This document shows, piece after piece, positions 399 to 5,188 of a stretch of 5,188 nt of DNA. How positions within the stretch are numbered: the first letter of the stretch is position 1; every line of letters begins with the position of its first letter. A model generated the notes under the pieces. The model was not told the DNA's origin. It did not search any database and worked only from the letters and a program-made list of their open reading frames with translations. The stretch comes from an uncultured archaeon (lineage in GTDB: Archaea; Asgardarchaeota; Thorarchaeia; Thorarchaeales; Thorarchaeaceae). A program made the position numbers and the translations under genes. The stretch lies in NCBI GenBank assembly GCA_964648855.1, contig CAZYLT010000051.1, positions 1-5,188 of the forward strand. Direction: 5' to 3'.

Positions 399-701
399 AT
401 GTCGAGCGATGATTCAATACTCGAATTTCTTGAACAAACATCAGCTCTTAGACTGCTCCATAGAATTGGAGATAGGGACAGGTATGTCACAGAACTCATT
501 AGAAGTACCAATAATCCAAGCGGAATTGGGAGTGAAGGGGCAATAAGGAAGTCCAGGGAGAATCTTATAGCAATAGGGTTAATGGTCGAAGAAGTCGAGA
601 AAGACCCACCATATAGAACTATGCTCAAAGCAACAGAGAAGGGAAAGAAAGCAGCTGAGATAGTTGGTAAATTGTTGGCCCTAGTTGACTCTAGCCAGTG
701 A
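399..701 (+). CDS. Winged helix-turn-helix transcriptional regulator (MarR/HxlR-like, 100 aa)
   Basis: Recognition-helix/wing pattern 'AIRKSRENLIAIGLMVEEVEKDPPYRTMLKATEKGKKAAE' matches the L..GL...R...(L)TEKG wHTH signature of small archaeal and viral regulators. GAGGGG lies upstream. Confidence 0.8.
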   Translation: MSSDDSILEFLEQTSALRLLHRIGDRDRYVTELIRSTNNPSGIGSEGAIRKSRENLIAIGLMVEEVEKDPPYRTMLKATEKGKKAAEIVGKLLALVDSSQ

Positions 702-884
702 GTATCTTCGCAGTTCCATCCCCGCATCTCTCTGCAGGTCGTCACCGAGTACTTTTTTCAGGTCCTGCACGAACTGGGTGATATCGTGCCCACGCTCCTG
801 GTGCCGTGTCGCCAGCTCCAGGATCATGTTTGCGGTCCGTATCCGGATGAGCCGAGCGTAGTGTCTTAGGTCTTGGTGGTTCAT
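681..884 (-). CDS. Hypothetical helical protein (67 aa)
   Basis: GGTAGGA upstream of the ATG and natural-looking amphipathic composition. It overlaps the convergent wHTH gene by 21 bp. No family recognised. Confidence 0.45.
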   Translation of the reverse strand: MNHQDLRHYARLIRIRTANMILELATRHQERGHDITQFVQDLKKVLGDDLQRDAGMELRRYSLARVN

Positions 885-936
885 TCTGTCCTACCGACAT
901 TGTGTTGGAGGCCGTCCCTCTTAAGGTCACCATGAA

Positions 937-972
937 ATTTACCAATGCTAGAGATAGGCAGTATTGGTAAAT
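937..972. repeat. Inverted repeat ATTTACCAATGCT-N10-AGTATTGGTAAAT
   Basis: 13-bp arms (937-949, 960-972) with one mismatch (G-U on the + strand). Confidence 0.85.
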
Positions 973-983
973 CCCACTATGCA

Positions 984-1005
984 AAAGTTGGCGCGCGCCA
1001 ACTTT
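984..1005. repeat. Perfect 22-bp palindrome AAAGTTGGCGCGCGCCAACTTT
   Basis: Read directly. It extends imperfectly to 978-1010. Confidence 0.95.
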
Positions 1006-1035
1006 GAATATGCCTCACCTCTAATAAAATTGTGT

Positions 1036-1061
1036 TTATTTACACATCATGGTGTAAATAA
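1036..1061. repeat. Inverted repeat TTATTTACAC-N6-GTGTAAATAA abutting the cysH stop codon
   Basis: Perfect 10-bp arms (1036-1045, 1052-1061) with a 6-nt loop. It begins at the first base after the TAG (1064-1062). Confidence 0.9.
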
Positions 1062-1784
1062 CTACTTTGTGTCGTTTCGGAATCGCCAGGACAGAATTCC
1101 ATCAACGAACGGAGACCCAAACCGTTCCATCTCCGAATCGAAGAAGGTGACAAATCGGTTCTTCTCAGAATCGTACCCGCCCTTCATCGTGGCATAGTCA
1201 TCGTAGACAGAGTGATAGGGAATCTCGTTCGAAACTATGTATGCCCAGCAGTCGCCAGCCGTCCAGTCACGAAGAGGATATAGCAGTGGCAGCTTGGTCG
1301 CTGAGTCGCGTTCTTCGTAGTTCTTACTTCGGATTGCACGCCCCTTCGATTCACTTGCCCGCATGCCAGTCAGCCCACAGTCCCGTTCTAGGTCCTGGCT
1401 CATCTTTCTCAGGGTCGCGAAGAAGGCCCTATATCCTAGCGAGCAGTCGTCTCTTGCATCCTTGCCACCTGGACGATGATATACATGTAATTCTGCTTTT
1501 GAGCCGCTTATTATATCCTCAGCGTTGTGAATGATCTCTCGGGCATAGGGTCTGGGAACCAGCCATGGCCCATAGTCCCAATGCCATACAACAAGTCCCA
1601 CGTCCCAGAATTGAAGCGCAAGGTCTAACAGAACGGTAGAGTCCTTTCCCCCAGAGAATGCGACGTATGGAGCATCAAACCTATTTGACCAATGTGATAG
1701 GCGCGTACGGCTCTCAGACACTAATTCTTTGAATCGTGGACTCTTCGCCCATAGCAGAAATTTTTGACGGTCTAGTGTATTCAT
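1062..1784 (-). CDS. cysH: CysH-like PAPS-reductase-family (PP-loop) protein associated with type IV-B Cas, 240 aa
   Basis: Motifs YVAFSGGKDS (PP-loop), TGMRASES..R and LYPLRDWTAGDCWAYI...IPYHSVYD. GGTGA RBS 9 nt upstream of the ATG. Last cas-associated gene of the operon. Confidence 0.9.
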   Translation of the reverse strand: MNTLDRQKFLLWAKSPRFKELVSESRTRLSHWSNRFDAPYVAFSGGKDSTVLLDLALQFWDVGLVVWHWDYGPWLVPRPYAREIIHNAEDIISGSKAELHVYHRPGGKDARDDCSLGYRAFFATLRKMSQDLERDCGLTGMRASESKGRAIRSKNYEERDSATKLPLLYPLRDWTAGDCWAYIVSNEIPYHSVYDDYATMKGGYDSEKNRFVTFFDSEMERFGSPFVDGILSWRFRNDTK

Positions 1785-2478
1785 CAGCCAATTTCACCAT
1801 CCCAAACCCCATGCTGTTCTTCTGTCCAAGTCCTGCCTGCAGGAGGAAGTCAGATATCGCATCATCACTCTCAACAGTGACAGTATAGTCATAGCTTATG
1901 AACCATCCTCCCTTTACGTGGATGCGTTTCCGTCTCACCTGCTCGAATCCCAATACTTCAAACTTTGCCCTGGAGCCGGTGATATCTCGATAGCGCTTCA
2001 TGGTGAAATGAATTAACAGGTCCGCGTAGTCATCATCTTCCGGCCCGATATGCCACTGTTTGTCTAAGTCCACCCGATATTTCCGGATTAATACAGGAGA
2101 CATGGTCTGAAGTCGATACTCGCCACTCATCTTCAAGCTGGGAACCGTCTGAACGTCTTTCACCCTGAAGTCCAGGGAATGAATTCTGATTATATTGGAA
2201 TCCTTGAATCCAACATAGATTGCATTTGAAATCTCCTCAATCGGACTCGAAATATGTAATTGGACCGTATCCGGAACCATCAAGCAGCCCCTCTGAGGAA
2301 TAAGACCCATGAGGCGAGAGAACACGAAGTGATGATACCCTGAGCGCTCATAGATGTGTCCAAGGCCCTCAGCCCGGAGGAGCGCATGAATCAATGAGGA
2401 CACGGAGTGATTGTACTCATATCCAATCATTGGTCGAGGGATTCGTTCATGAGGACTCAGCCAGACAATAATCCTCAT
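1714..2478 (-). CDS. cas6: CRISPR-associated endoribonuclease Cas6 (254 aa)
   Basis: C-terminal G-loop GLGQKNSMGFG (GhGxxxxxGhG), N-terminal YNHSVSSLIHALL, FVFSRL, HISSP and TMSPVL motifs. The ATG at 2478 overlaps the csf3 stop (ATGA). Confidence 0.92.
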   Translation of the reverse strand: MRIIVWLSPHERIPRPMIGYEYNHSVSSLIHALLRAEGLGHIYERSGYHHFVFSRLMGLIPQRGCLMVPDTVQLHISSPIEEISNAIYVGFKDSNIIRIHSLDFRVKDVQTVPSLKMSGEYRLQTMSPVLIRKYRVDLDKQWHIGPEDDDYADLLIHFTMKRYRDITGSRAKFEVLGFEQVRRKRIHVKGGWFISYDYTVTVESDDAISDFLLQAGLGQKNSMGFGMVKLADEYTRPSKISAMGEESTIQRISV

Positions 2479-3242
2479 AGTTCGACATTCGCCCCTGGAG
2501 GAGCACATAATGCTACGTTTTTCTTATCCCAGAATGGAGGGCGCCATGCTAATCGGACCTGGTCGTCATACTTCTTCAGTAACCGCACAGGAATGGGACG
2601 CATAGCAACCCCATCATCATCAACCACAGATAGATCTACATCGTGCTCTTGCACGTCTATTGATTTCACTGCACCAAACCCATATGCTGCCTTCTTTCCT
2701 AGATATTGCACATGTGATAGTAATTCCTGTACTCTTTCGATATCGCCACATGCAAAGAATCTAACTCGTTTCACCGGGAGATATGGCAGAGTCATCATGT
2801 ACATCTTATATCGCCCCCGATTTATCTGTACATACCGTTTTCGCCCCCGATTTATCATTTCAGAATGTCTTGAGTCAAAGCGCTTGTAGACGGTGGTATT
2901 GGTCCATTCGGATTCGTTAGCATCAAAAATGCTCACGCTGGCATGCCACATCTCGCCAGTCGACTTGAGCGGCAGAGGGATTTTCACCGGAACGGGGAGC
3001 TTCCCAGGAAGGAGCCAGTAGTCCGCTCCGAGGAGATTGCGAAACACAAAATGAGCTATGAGCCCATCAAGATGCAGCCAGGGATGTCCCATGGCCATGG
3101 GTGCTGCCATCTCAAATGAGATCTTCATCGGAATGAGCTCATCTGGCTTCTGAGCTCGTGCGAGTTTGTCCTGTACGCGAGCTATGAGGTCACGTTCATC
3201 CGAGAGCTGTTTCGAGGCTCTTGATTGTCTTGAGGATCTCAT
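2475..3242 (-). CDS. csf3: Type IV Cas5-family subunit Csf3
   Basis: PMKISFEMAAP...PWLHLDGLIA, IPLPL, WHAS, FFACGDIERVQELL, G-loop LGKKAAYGFGAV, RPIP and RPPFW motifs. The start is uncertain: 3242 (GGAGG 9 nt upstream), 3248 or 3128. Confidence 0.9.
   Translation of the reverse strand: MRSSRQSRASKQLSDERDLIARVQDKLARAQKPDELIPMKISFEMAAPMAMGHPWLHLDGLIAHFVFRNLLGADYWLLPGKLPVPVKIPLPLKSTGEMWHASVSIFDANESEWTNTTVYKRFDSRHSEMINRGRKRYVQINRGRYKMYMMTLPYLPVKRVRFFACGDIERVQELLSHVQYLGKKAAYGFGAVKSIDVQEHDVDLSVVDDDGVAMRPIPVRLLKKYDDQVRLAWRPPFWDKKNVALCAPPGANVEL
2811..2856. repeat. Intragenic 16-bp direct repeat TCGCCCCCGATTTATC x2 (2811-2826, 2841-2856)
   Basis: 30-bp period and in frame. It encodes INRGR twice in Csf3. 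Confidence 0.9.
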
Positions 3243-4017
3243 TGTCATTTTCCTCCACAAATGATAGATACTCGTCGCTCTTCGGAAATCCCTTCGGCCA
3301 GTCGTACTCGATCTTAACCTGTCCGAACCCAGTAGCACTTCTACCACCGATATGGGGGTCTTGCATCCACAGGTCCACCATGTGTCTCAGGCAACTTGCC
3401 TCAAGTTCATCATGATCCAGCAAGGTAAAAGAATGCTCGAATTTTGTTCCAGGGGCAAGCGTCTCGAATGTGATCATCATCTGCACGGCCTGTTCATCAG
3501 CCTCCCTCTGTTTCAAATCATCCTTTCGGGTCTGAAATGAGTCGTCTAGTAACTCATAGAATGACCGGTCACTCTGCAGATGCTCTGGATGGTAGGGATT
3601 CAGTTCACTACATACCGGAGTAGCAATCCCCACCTGCATCTTTCCCGATATCACTTGATTCAGAATGGATGCTCCTAGTAAGGATAATGGTGGAATCATC
3701 GTTCGGATCGATTCTCTCATCTCCAAGTCGATCCGTCCGGAGCCAGTTCCCACCTCCTCAAGGATTCCTCCAGCGAACAGCATATGATACATCTTGATGG
3801 TTGGTTCGTAGTCGATACGCCGACTCAGGTCTGAAAATGCCCGTCGTCTCAATGGCCCACGTATGGCATTTCCGCTCACTACAGGTACCTGCATGATCTC
3901 ATCATCCACGAGATACTTCATCCTGCGGATCATGACCTCGCTTCCTGTCTTCTCGTCTCCTCCGTGATGAATTGGACTCATCGCGGTGAGCACACCGTTA
4001 ATCTTTGTTGTCTTCAT
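3196..4017 (-). CDS. csf2: Type IV Cas7-family backbone subunit Csf2 (273 aa)
   Basis: LTAMSPIHHGG, VPVVSGNAIRGPLRR, LFAGG, PPLSLLG, QMMITFETLAPGT and G-loop IGGRSATGFG. GGAGG RBS upstream. Confidence 0.93.
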   Translation of the reverse strand: MKTTKINGVLTAMSPIHHGGDEKTGSEVMIRRMKYLVDDEIMQVPVVSGNAIRGPLRRRAFSDLSRRIDYEPTIKMYHMLFAGGILEEVGTGSGRIDLEMRESIRTMIPPLSLLGASILNQVISGKMQVGIATPVCSELNPYHPEHLQSDRSFYELLDDSFQTRKDDLKQREADEQAVQMMITFETLAPGTKFEHSFTLLDHDELEASCLRHMVDLWMQDPHIGGRSATGFGQVKIEYDWPKGFPKSDEYLSFVEENDNEILKTIKSLETALG

Positions 4018-4021
4018 TTTT

Positions 4022-4363
4022 TCATTCCTCCAGGGTGTCTATAGCTGACGGCCCTTGCTGGGCTAATAGCGTCAGCACCACGCTTTGTGTTCGTAGAACA
4101 TCCATGACATGTTTCTCCTCTTGCTTGAGCCGGTTTACTAGCCCCACAGGGAGATTGAGGGATTGTAGGGAAAGCCCTTTGCAGAGCCTCTCTATTGCCT
4201 CAGCTATACCACCTTGATATCCCGCCTTCTTGAGCCGGTGTTGGAATATGTCCGTGGCTCGTCGTGTCTTGGAGGTCCCCATTCTCTTCCAGTCTACTCG
4301 TTTCCATGCCTCGTGCAAGACTACCGCCAGGTCACGGTAGACAGGATCATCTTTGAGACTCAT
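4022..4363 (-). CDS. cas11: Cas11-like small alpha-helical subunit (113 aa)
   Basis: The ATG at 4363 overlaps the csf1 stop (ATGA), with GGAG upstream. Small, helical and basic, located between csf1 and csf2 where IV-B/IV-D loci encode Cas11. Assigned mainly by size and position. Confidence 0.75.
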   Translation of the reverse strand: MSLKDDPVYRDLAVVLHEAWKRVDWKRMGTSKTRRATDIFQHRLKKAGYQGGIAEAIERLCKGLSLQSLNLPVGLVNRLKQEEKHVMDVLRTQSVVLTLLAQQGPSAIDTLEE

Positions 4364-5046
4364 TTCTTTTTCATCTCCGTCTTTGTTGGAATCATCACAC
4401 TCACTACAGCCTTGGTCAGGCCATCGAAGCGATGTGTCTTGAACCATTCGTAGAGGCGAGGACGCTCCAAAGCCATTTGCCCTTCTTGTTTCAATACCGC
4501 CTCGTCCTTTAGCCACAACCATCTCCCCTTCCACATCTTCTCTTTGCTCCCACCAATAAAGACCGCTGCATCCCTGGTGAGTTCAATAGTTTCATCAATA
4601 AGCTCCTTGGTGACCGGATATTCCTCATCGTCCACGGTCAGCACAAACCGATTTCTGGAGGTATTGACATGTGTCTGGATCCATCCATGCTTACGATAGC
4701 TAAGTGAGATATAGAGAGCCCATGGTGGGTCAGGAACTTGTGTCAAATATGGTCGGACTTCAGCTCGTGATAAAAATGTGAAATCTTTCTCTGTCACCAG
4801 CCAAGATTTTCTTCGATAGTTTGCTGTCTTCAACATGTGCCAACAAGGAGGGCATATGTTCGCCCCCTCTTGGAAGTGTTCCCATGCAGTGAATGTCTTC
4901 GGCAGCTTGATTCGATGACCATTTTCGGTATAGATTCCACAGATGGAACAATCTCCGGGAATCTCATCCGTCGGTAGGTCAATAGAGCGCTGTCTGCAAA
5001 CAAAGTGAGATACTGAATGTAGCAATCGCTGATCAGATTTCAACAT
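4360..5046 (-). CDS. csf1: Type IV large subunit Csf1 (Cas8-like, Zn-finger), 228 aa
   Basis: CSICG...FTAW...ICPPC zinc finger followed by VPDPPW...SYRKHGW, typical of Csf1. First gene of the operon. Confidence 0.88.
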   Translation of the reverse strand: MLKSDQRLLHSVSHFVCRQRSIDLPTDEIPGDCSICGIYTENGHRIKLPKTFTAWEHFQEGANICPPCWHMLKTANYRRKSWLVTEKDFTFLSRAEVRPYLTQVPDPPWALYISLSYRKHGWIQTHVNTSRNRFVLTVDDEEYPVTKELIDETIELTRDAAVFIGGSKEKMWKGRWLWLKDEAVLKQEGQMALERPRLYEWFKTHRFDGLTKAVVSVMIPTKTEMKKK

Positions 5047-5071
5047 GATATGATATTGAGTGTAGTAGTCG

Positions 5072-5079
5072 CTAATAAG
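5072..5079 (-). promoter_or_regulatory. Candidate TATA box (CTTATTAG) for a near-leaderless csf1 transcript
   Basis: Lies 26-33 nt upstream of the csf1 ATG, and csf1 has no SD. This matches archaeal leaderless geometry. Confidence 0.35.
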
Positions 5080-5091
5080 TGATTCGATTTC

Positions 5092-5130
5092 AAATAAAAA
5101 GAGAAATACTGAGGACTGCGGCTAGTCCTC
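5092..5130 (-). terminator. Hairpin plus U-rich tract ending the upstream gene
   Basis: Minus strand GAGGACT-AGCCGC-AGTCCTC (7-bp stem) followed by AGTATTTCTCTTTTTATTT. It overlaps the TAG at 5124-5122. Confidence 0.55.
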
Positions 5131-5187
5131 TACGAAACTGATGTGTAGAGAGTCGAACTCGGTGTCGTTAAAGTCCCCGACCACAAC
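5122..5187 (-). CDS. 3' end of an upstream gene (...VVVGDFNDTEFDSLHISFVED*)
   Basis: Open frame from the right edge to the TAG at 5124-5122, followed by a terminator-like signal. Too short to identify. Confidence 0.45.
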   Translation of the reverse strand, partial: VVVGDFNDTEFDSLHISFVED

Positions 5188-5188
5188 G

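Follow-up and report, generated by a model that had tools for sequence, protein, structure and literature searches.

The window, a stretch of 5188 bp that makes up an entire 5.2-kb contig from a Thorarchaeota bin, carries a tightly coupled operon in which a type IV-B effector (Csf1, Cas11, Csf2 and Csf3) is accompanied by a canonical Cas6 and by a PP-loop enzyme of the CasCysH type. By a narrow preference, we explain it as the IV-B operon of a mobile element that captured its Cas6 and whose RNA is made in trans. To our knowledge, neither the RNA partner nor the function of type IV-B has been settled. Cas6 proteins bind specific RNAs, so that Cas6-bearing IV-B loci offer a handle on the RNA question. 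The sequence-only reading had taken the locus for a variant or evolutionary intermediate; its architecture is not new but a further case of a rare variant that Pinilla-Redondo et al. (PMC7038947) had described before ('rare exceptions: only 12 instances'), and six more loci of this kind turned up among 80 virus contigs. Our analysis adds the apparently repeated capture of Cas6 by virus-borne IV-B loci, the array-free state of the Cas6-carrying viruses, which points to RNA in trans, and one IV-B plus Cas6 system on a probable Thorarchaeota element that is targeted by host type I-D.

Organization of the operon

Six genes lie on the minus strand in the order csf1-cas11-csf2-csf3-cas6-cysH-like, with these coordinates read from the sequence:

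5093..5101, minus strand: TTTTTATTT, a TATA-like T/A stretch that precedes the csf1 ATG by ~50 nt (sequence reading)
4360..5046, minus strand: csf1, type IV large subunit, 228 aa, two CxxC pairs (PADLOC Csf1_0_IV, 3e-31; TIGR03114, 4e-12)
4022..4363, minus strand: cas11, small subunit, 113 aa; start codon overlapping the stop of csf1 as ATGA (PADLOC Cas11_0_IV, 2e-24)
3196..4017, minus strand: csf2, Cas7 backbone, 273 aa (PADLOC Csf2_0_IV, 3e-74)
2475..3245, minus strand: csf3, Cas5, ~256 aa (PADLOC Csf3_0_IV, 7e-60; TIGR03116, 1e-25)
1714..2478, minus strand: cas6, 254 aa, canonical Cas6 fold (TIGR01877, PF01881, AlphaFold2, Foldseek)
1062..1784, minus strand: cysH-like PP-loop gene of the CasCysH type, 240 aa, SGGKDS motif (PF01507)
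984..1061, minus strand: two terminator-like hairpins after cysH (sequence reading; putative function)
1061-1036, minus strand: first hairpin, a perfect 10-bp stem
1005-984, minus strand: second hairpin, an 11-bp palindrome ending in a T run

Profile searches recognised all six genes, and we regard their identities as virtually certain. The gene order, overlaps and 4-nt gap given by the sequence-only reading were borne out: ATGA overlaps are found at two junctions (4363-4360 and 2478-2475), 4 nt separate cas11 from csf2 (4021-4018), and the start of csf3 overlaps the end of csf2 by about 50 nt. Placed exactly between csf3 and cysH, cas6 is an integral part of the operon, as had been proposed, since it shares an ATGA junction with csf3 and the cysH start codon lies 71 nt within it. 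The TTTTTATTT stretch is a candidate operon promoter.

The IV-B core of csf1, csf2 and csf3 is complete, cas11 lies between csf1 and csf2, and a Cas-associated cysH-like PP-loop gene is adjacent. The core assignment is carried by the PADLOC type IV models; matches of the Csf proteins to TIGR03114/5/6 fall below the equivalog cut-offs. Compared with sister loci, Csf1 is 41-45% identical (L011, L013 and L015), Cas11 49-72% and the CysH-like protein 51-60%, while the closest relatives of Csf2 reach 62-67%. The starts of csf3 and cysH are supported by the sister loci, which align from residues 1-3 (the L015 Csf3 from residue 3). The CysH-like protein scores 58.2 bits against PF01507 (cut-off 22.5; 1.4e-15) and keeps all 18 of the positions that are at least 80% conserved across 168 IV-B CysH-like proteins. 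Its three cysteines occupy unconserved columns only, no cysteine is conserved across the 168 proteins, and the C-terminal catalytic cysteine of a bona fide CysH (PAPS reductase) is missing, in agreement with the description of CasCysH (PMC8175902).

IV-B loci typically, if not strictly, lack cas6 and arrays, as the earlier reading had stated (PMC7038947, PMC8175902); the window has cas6 and no array. Because Cas6-bearing loci have been kept in IV-B as rare exceptions (PMC7038947), we treat it as a variant that may still be placed there. The scan for arrays, dinG, recD and cas10-HD that the sequence-only reading had suggested found none within the 5188 bp, nor any other helicase or an adaptation gene.

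Cas6 keeps the fold and has a substituted active site

The protein encoded at 1714-2478 is indeed a Cas6: it exceeds the curated cut-offs of both TIGR01877 (92.9 bits versus 58.65) and PF01881 (67.8 bits versus 23). The AlphaFold2 model (pLDDT 91.6) predicts a double ferredoxin-like (RAMP) fold with a C-terminal glycine-rich loop, and Foldseek aligns it at a TM of ~0.8 to 3qjj, 3ufc, 5yi6 and 3pkm. The loop itself, GLGQKNSMGFG, is conserved and intact, as are other near-invariant positions. Homology and the confident predicted fold both begin at residue 1, which supports the start at 2478; the automatic gene call on record begins only at residue 67. Residues 232-254, the last 23 codons, form a disordered tail encoded within the cysH overlap, out of the start of cysH.

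In two-RAMP fold, glycine-rich loop and approximate length, this Cas6 resembles PfuCas6 and its non-catalytic paralogues (3pkm, 3i4h, 3ufc, 3qjj) as well as a Thorarchaeota type I-B Cas6, and the type IV-A Cas6/Csf5 structure 6njy is much less similar (TM 0.49). Unlike PfuCas6, the window protein is encoded by an array-less type IV operon, and all three catalytic positions are substituted: Tyr31, His46 and Lys52 of PfuCas6 correspond to H31, Y43 and H49, in columns that hold Y in 53, H in 60 and K in 56 of 66 relatives. The protein is a Cas6 family member by fold, whose catalysis is not predictable from its triad: with every canonical position replaced, binding may persist while cleavage is lost, but some Cas6 enzymes are active although they lack the histidine (PMC3652601).

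These substitutions raise the alternative that cas6 is a passenger that no longer functions or is decaying, a gene taken from a host and now devoid of its catalytic residues, in an otherwise ordinary array-less IV-B operon. The single changes Y31A and H46A abolish PfuCas6 activity (PMC3652601), the best PDB sequence matches (3ufc and PH0350) are non-catalytic paralogues, and the closest sister loci do without cas6. Yet the 254-codon ORF is intact and translationally coupled via ATGA, the predicted fold is confident with its loop and near-invariant positions kept, and His and Tyr have exchanged places instead of disappearing. Cas6 active sites are also plastic, SsoCas6 being functional without the histidine (PMC3652601), and repeat RNA is still bound by non-cutting paralogues (PDB 3qjj title). 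We therefore consider a passenger gene rather improbable. That H/Y/H could simply reflect gene decay counts against our preferred explanation.

Its nearest relative belongs to a type I-B operon of Thorarchaeota and is 35% identical, a distance at which repeat specificity cannot be deduced from the relative.

cas6 was probably captured in the window lineage

We surveyed 179 related loci, 80 of them IMG/VR virus contigs. CysH is present in 144 of the 179, and its co-occurrence with cas6, which the sequence-only reading had proposed to survey, is rare (7 of the 144, window included). The other six Cas6-bearing loci (L145, L176, L180, L181, L184 and L187) are all on IMG/VR virus contigs. Among the seven Cas6 proteins we distinguish five unrelated lineages, with at most 25% identity between lineages and four gene orders; that of the window is at most ~21% identical to any of the six from virus contigs. 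L176, L184 and L145 keep the Y/H/K triad, and H/Y/H is seen in the window alone.

On the Csf2 tree the window falls within a clade with 99% support. None of its readable members (L016/L015 and L011) has a cas6 between or beside csf3 and cysH, and in the closest relatives csf3 directly adjoins cysH. The distribution of Cas6 on the tree requires 4-5 changes. These cas6-less sisters and tree changes, together with the dissimilar Cas6 lineages, the Cas6 tail within the cysH overlap and the nearest Cas6 in a Thorarchaeota type I-B operon, argue that cas6 was probably captured secondarily in the window lineage. The earlier view of a locus that 'retains' cas6 as an 'evolutionary intermediate' is not supported. 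We infer from the sequences that virus-borne IV-B loci captured cas6 independently on at least four or five occasions, one of them in the window lineage, with ordinary archaeal type I-B/III-like Cas6 as the likely donor pool.

The survey also bears on whether the window is a truncated helicase-bearing subtype, an IV-D-like system with its RecD off the contig, which would account for Cas6. Subtype IV-D (RecD, Cas6 and array) shares Cas6 and has a Csf2 family related to that of IV-B, Cas6 normally goes with IV-A and IV-D (PMC7038947), and the contig flanks are unreadable. Unlike IV-D, however, the window has a conserved CysH-like gene of the IV-B kind, as do most relatives, and neither helicase nor array is visible in the contig. 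At five of the six other Cas6-bearing loci, ten large ORFs within ~7 kb of the operons, seven of them without a Pfam match, included no helicase. The closest long relative, a 115-kb element that encodes PCNA and an Arf-like GTPase, likewise showed none in the surrounding 20 kb. A nearby helicase or a IV-D affiliation, which the sequence-only reading had named as evidence against itself, thus finds no support among relatives, and we regard a truncated IV-D-like system as very improbable.

A probable mobile element targeted by a type I-D spacer

The host genome comes from a microbial mat sample, and EF-2 on its contig C12 is ~85% identical to named Thorarchaeota proteins. Three further features connect the window with this genome and its assembly:

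2623..2661, minus strand: protospacer inside csf3, 39/39 match to a spacer in the type I-D array of the host (G000:C11:97294-97332)
641..670, no strand: assembly branch point; depth of block 641-5163 is ~5x that of 1-640; there is also an alternative left flank
5111..5188, no strand: right-end segment also present in other contigs, with roughly twofold depth; the assembly ends here at a repeat or variant junction

The matching spacer sits in a 66-repeat array joined to the type I-D cas operon. Such a perfect 39-nt match makes the window most likely a fragment of a mobile element. The same origin is indicated by its G+C content (47.9% versus ~44.5%, the highest among 62 contigs), the branch points with depth steps, the many IMG/VR contigs among its relatives and the 115-kb element. 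We conclude that the window is probably part of a virus, a provirus or a plasmid linked to a Thorarchaeota host. There is precedent for a virus-borne IV-B locus targeted by a host spacer (PMC10541130).

Could the contig instead be host chromosome with a resident type IV system, the spacer match being self-targeting? It was binned with the host genome, and in run X1 a 57-nt repeat-plus-spacer piece branches off at 2623 with a depth of ~79, against 76-84 for the element. However, runs X2 and X3 contain the element and no spacer branch was seen in them; the G+C content is the highest of all contigs, the flanks are variable with ~5-fold depth steps, and relatives are overwhelmingly on virus contigs and plasmids. 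A perfect self-target under an intact type I-D system would normally be lethal. In addition, a survey of 1006 Asgard genomes places type IV in Heimdallarchaeaceae and Lokiarchaeales branches only (PMC13700489). A chromosomal location is accordingly improbable, and we keep to a mobile element.

Source of the RNA

The window contains no array, mini-array or host-repeat-like unit. No array was found anywhere in five Cas6-bearing virus records with IV-B and CysH, four of them at 100% CheckV completeness, and Cas6-bearing loci have no array or even two-repeat unit near the operon. This absence from window and virus records argues for RNA made in trans, and we somewhat favour such a supply for the IV-B complex. 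It also makes doubtful the earlier proposal that the complex is 'loaded with a defined Cas6-processed RNA', as does the substituted triad.

The element might alternatively have its own array or mini-array just past the contig ends, processed by Cas6 in a self-contained CysH-coupled CRISPR system. The contig ends at branch points of the assembly, and arrays, like other repeats, interrupt assembly; Fuxiviruses have an IV-B locus with a two-repeat mini-array (PMC10541130); at locus L090 a true array of at least 8 repeats directly follows cysH, and L107 has an array-like repeat of 3.6 copies. Against this stand the array-free virus records and Cas6-bearing loci, and the loose ends at the contig edges, which are not repeat-like. 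The two direct repeats at 275-359 belong to a divergent promoter region, outside any array. An own array is thus unlikely. The shortness of the contig (5.2 kb), past whose ends an array or helicase could lie, counts against RNA in trans as the best explanation.

If RNA is made in trans, the likeliest source would be host CRISPR transcripts, from three arrays with 104 repeats in the host genome; that it is host crRNA is a tentative suggestion that we hold less likely than the supply in trans itself. Cas6 would then act in trans, possibly on these transcripts. Several observations count against this. The element Cas6 has no detectable similarity to the host Cas6d beside the type I-D operon, and host repeats have only a short 5' TTTCAA-type motif in common with the repeat of the nearest Cas6's array. 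A second Cas6d-like gene adjoins an array on host contig C9. In the solved IV-B complex the bound RNA was heterogeneous and non-CRISPR although crRNAs had been co-expressed (PMC8175902), and IV-B correlates negatively with other CRISPR systems (PMC7038947). A crRNA-scavenging or sponge role for type IV-B is already in print (PMC8175902, PMC7038947).

Proposed mechanism and relation to known systems

By analogy with the solved IV-B complex, the Csf proteins would assemble a Cascade-like filament on RNA, which Cas6 would supply or anchor by binding a repeat-like element, and the CysH-like protein would act on whichever nucleic acid the complex holds. Capture of host crRNA could then drain guides from host type I-D or turn host spacers on rival elements. 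In its boldest form, which we consider speculative and rather unlikely, the captured Cas6, with a rewired or non-cutting site, and the IV-B filament would seize host type I-D transcripts as a multi-subunit, RNA-capturing counter-defence machine. Host immunity would then be starved of guides, or its spacers redirected against competitors, and the CysH-like enzyme would act on the captured or targeted nucleic acid.

Typical IV-B systems, such as the Mycobacterium sp. JS623 plasmid complex (PMC7937560; PMC8175902), have the same other five genes, Cas11 included, in the same order. They likewise have a CysH-like PP-loop protein without the catalytic cysteine, are carried on mobile elements, as the window probably is, and resemble the 5.2 kb of the contig in showing no array, helicase, nuclease or adaptation genes. 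The window differs in its cas6 between csf3 and cysH and in its Asgard (Thorarchaeota) host. The 'Fuxiviridae' of Bathyarchaeia (PMC10541130) and a Methanoperedens virus (bioRxiv 10.1101/2023.08.02.551345) are archaeal mobile elements on which IV-B again comes with a CysH-like gene, and a Fuxivirus csf gene is matched by a host spacer, as in the window. Cas6 is not mentioned for either, however, and the Fuxivirus has a mini-array whereas the window, tied to Thorarchaeota, has none.

Closest in content are the six IMG/VR Cas6-bearing loci, which like the window combine the IV-B core, a CysH-like gene and a canonical Cas6 and show neither array nor helicase in the sequence covered; L184 and L145 even share its gene order. 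The window is set apart by a Cas6 that was apparently gained separately and by its H/Y/H triad. Its promise as a model for CysH function, put forward in the sequence-only reading, is weaker than hoped, as the host is uncultured, the element incomplete and the Cas6 without canonical catalytic residues. With their triads intact, L176, L184 and L145 are better experimental starting points than the window copy.

The cas6 gene is part of a compact type IV-B operon

The window holds six closely spaced genes, all on the minus strand, which profile searches identified as follows:

5046-4360, minus strand, Csf1
4363-4022, minus strand, Cas11
4017-3196, minus strand, Csf2
about 3245-2475, minus strand, Csf3
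2478-1714, minus strand, Cas6 (TIGR01877, 92.9 bits against a cut-off of 58.65; PF01881, 67.8 against 23)
1784-1062, minus strand, CysH-like protein with a PAPS-reductase fold and PP-loop (PF01507, 58.2 bits against a cut-off of 22.5)

The two proteins whose combination is at issue, Cas6 and the CysH-like protein, both exceeded curated cut-offs. The gene order and junctions described in the sequence-only reading were all present: ATGA overlaps at two junctions, 4 nt separating cas11 from csf2, and 71 nt shared by cas6 and cysH. Two perfect hairpins 3' of cysH and a T/A-rich box about 50 nt upstream of csf1 are consistent with a single transcription unit. For Cas6 the recorded automatic gene prediction is only 188 aa long and starts at residue 67 of the protein encoded at 1714-2478, so that it would miss the N-terminal RAMP half, including the substituted triad positions discussed below. 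In the CysH-like protein the SGGKDS PP-loop is intact, as are all positions conserved in at least 80% of 168 IV-B CysH-like proteins; no cysteine is found among those positions. With its PP-loop and without a conserved cysteine, it is like CasCysH as published (PMC8175902). A candidate sliding-clamp motif at the Csf1 C-terminus was rejected, as it is a conserved NPLW/LYEWF-type motif internal to the domain in the window's clade.

Capture of cas6 is better supported than retention

Type IV-B is defined by csf1, cas11, csf2, csf3 and a cysH-like gene, normally without Cas6, array or helicase (PMC8175902). Virus-borne IV-B systems have been described in the 'Fuxiviridae' of Bathyarchaeia, where a mini-array is present and the viral cas7 is matched by a host spacer (PMC10541130), and in a Methanoperedens virus (bioRxiv 10.1101/2023.08.02.551345). 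We surveyed 179 non-redundant loci, taken from an alignment of Csf2 relatives in metagenome, genome and virus collections and annotated with custom-built profiles. A CysH-like gene was found in 144 of them, most commonly in the order csf1-cas11-csf2-csf3-cysH. PADLOC confirmed Cas6 in seven loci, six of them on IMG/VR virus contigs and the seventh in the window. The combination of Cas6 with IV-B is already on record in 12 instances (PMC7038947), though uncharacterised, and the window operon is a further member of this rare form. Particular to it are its Thorarchaeota host, a type I-D spacer of that host directed against it, and a fully substituted Cas6 triad.

The seven loci differ in gene order. 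That of the window recurs in L184 and L145, while the order is cysH-cas6 in L176, csf2-cas6-csf3-cysH in L180 and L181, and cas6-csf1-csf2-cysH-csf3 in L187. Their Cas6 proteins fall into five groups with at most 25% identity between groups. On a Csf2 tree built with FastTree, the distribution of Cas6 needs five changes, at least four of which are forced by well-supported branches. The window belongs to a clade with 99% support that also contains L011, L013 and L016 (L015 and L016 being one contig). A spacing of 35 nt separates csf3 from cysH in L015, whereas the two adjoin on opposite strands in L011; the L013 contig stops inside csf3. Finally, the stretch of cas6 that overlaps cysH encodes a tail (residues 232-254) that is predicted to be disordered, the pattern that insertion before a pre-existing cysH start would give. 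The scattered occurrence of Cas6 on the tree, its five groups, the varied gene orders and the tail within the overlap together support capture of cas6 better than its retention. The sequence-only reading had the operon "retain" Cas6 as a variant or evolutionary intermediate; its gene identities and layout stand, but retention and the intermediate status do not agree with the Csf2 tree, the sister loci or the Cas6 groups. Nor is the window the best model for CysH function, though it had been proposed as a tractable one.

Relatives such as L005 (10260-13509) and L011 (11530-14132) illustrate a further arrangement: after the IV-B operon there is often another PAPS-reductase gene, with DUF3440, and a ParB_N gene. 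The two resemble the pair IbrA/IbrB, and a DNA methylase sometimes lies alongside. A second CysH-type match follows the first in 19 of the 179 loci.

Cas6 has a PfuCas6-like fold and a substituted triad

A word-index search with Cas6 returned only three matches, all distant, and when 1.84 billion representatives were searched exhaustively the best match, named Cas6 of a Thorarchaeota archaeon, was only 35% identical. A member of the cluster of that protein heads a type I-B operon and adjoins an array with a 31-nt repeat. The AlphaFold2 model of the window Cas6 was confident (pLDDT 91.6). It resembled PH0350, the P. furiosus Cas6 paralogue 3ufc, 5yi6 and PfuCas6 with TM scores of about 0.8, but the type IV-A Cas6 6njy with only 0.49. 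When the window protein was aligned with 65 relatives, the PfuCas6 triad positions held Tyr in 53, His in 60 and Lys in 56 sequences; the window protein has His, Tyr and His. The Cas6 proteins of L176, L184 and L145 keep the Y/H/K triad. In PfuCas6, Y31A and H46A each abolish activity, whereas SsoCas6 lacks the histidine and still has activity; 3UFC is a paralogue that is not catalytic (PMC3652601). With the triad substituted and precedents in both directions, the window Cas6 may or may not cut RNA. The predicted fold and a glycine-rich loop suggest that RNA binding would persist. A literature search for the label 'Cas6nc' gave no match.

The contig is best read as a mobile element targeted by its own host

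The window is the whole of contig C51 (5188 bp), one of 62 contigs in a 3.1-Mb bin whose EF-2 shares about 85% identity with proteins that carry the name Candidatus Thorarchaeota. In a 2026 survey that covered 1006 Asgard genomes, type IV was confined to branches of Heimdallarchaeaceae and Lokiarchaeales (PMC13700489). On contig C32 the bin encodes a type I-D operon (cas1, cas4, cas10d, cas11d, cas7d, cas5d, cas3, cas6 and csa3), whose end overlaps that of contig C11, the carrier of a 66-repeat array. C9 and C33 each bear one more array, the repeats being related, and beside the C9 array stands a second Cas6d-like gene. That region (G000:C9:1-8455, L225) begins with the array and continues with the Cas6d-like, CARF, MkoA-like and DrmC/MkoB-like genes, possibly a Mokosh-type defence island.

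One of the 101 host spacers matches the window, over 39 of 39 nt at 2623-2661, within csf3. The runs that contain the window DNA are metagenomes of a microbial mat, from a single study; no RNA run was listed among them. In the public assembly of one run (X1) a 57-nt piece joins host repeat to spacer and splits the element contig exactly at 2623; in two others (X2 and X3) a single contig runs through this position. Characterised type I-D systems use the motif GTN. The minus-strand bases 5' of the protospacer (window 2662-2664) are ATC, or TCA if the array has the opposite orientation, and since neither conforms to GTN, type I-D interference may be inefficient.

The contig has the highest G+C of the bin. 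Graph branch points (641-670 and 5111-5188) flank the block 641-5163 in the public assemblies. Nucleotides 1-640 have about one fifth of the depth of this block, and an alternative left flank is present; the last 55-80 nt occur in other contigs too, at about double depth, and two contigs of higher depth, of 5467 and 459 nt, share the right end. These branch points, depth steps and the alternative flank indicate that the operon cassette occupies variable contexts in the population. Taken with the spacer match and the G+C, they are best explained if the contig is a mobile element that its own host targets. No longer contig with the exact window proteins was found, the longest being the window contig itself; its ends do not overlap and gave no sign of a circle, and a single-protein scan of genome contigs for relatives of the element found no match. 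The closest long relative, L011 (JGI contig Ga0452208_000067, 115 kb), is apparently a large element associated with Asgard archaea; PCNA adjoins its IV-B operon, and it encodes an Arf/Ras-family small GTPase.

Cas6 most likely acts on RNA made elsewhere

The only array candidate in the window was a 28-nt direct repeat present twice, at 275-302 and 332-359, with 86% likeness between the copies and an offset of 57 nt; it lies between two divergent small open reading frames:

399-701, plus strand, small open reading frame, weakly EarA/winged-helix-like (E 0.007)
265-50, minus strand, small open reading frame

We rejected it as a mini-array in favour of an operator/promoter repeat; a regulator encoded by the element probably uses the copies as operator sites. 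Units resembling the host repeats or the Thorarchaeota type I-B repeat were sought in the window, and the best matches, of 9-10 nt, were at chance level. No array or mini-array was found near the other Cas6-bearing loci of the survey, nor any array in five of their virus records taken in full (four rated 100% complete, at 63-153 kb), and no helicase was found among ten large open reading frames, seven of them without a Pfam match, lying within about 7 kb of the operon in five of the six virus loci. With arrays missing from both the window and these viruses, Cas6 of the Cas6-bearing IV-B systems most likely works on RNA produced elsewhere.

For the window element, the host's CRISPR transcripts would be the obvious candidate pool, being abundant. 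Against such a source, no similarity could be detected between the window Cas6 and the host Cas6d compared with it, the solved IV-B complex held heterogeneous RNA (PMC8175902), and IV-B is negatively correlated with other CRISPR systems (PMC7038947). The host bin has no type I-B operon. A metagenome contig (Ga0164318_10069268; L090:2718-3295) carries cas11-csf2-csf3-cysH followed directly by a genuine array of at least eight repeats (CTTTCAATTCCCCGTGGGAATGTCGAATAGGTCTTAC); the contig is short and shows no cas6. The 5' part of its repeat resembles the type I-D repeats of the window's host, and IV-B loci and the host repeat family can therefore be neighbours.
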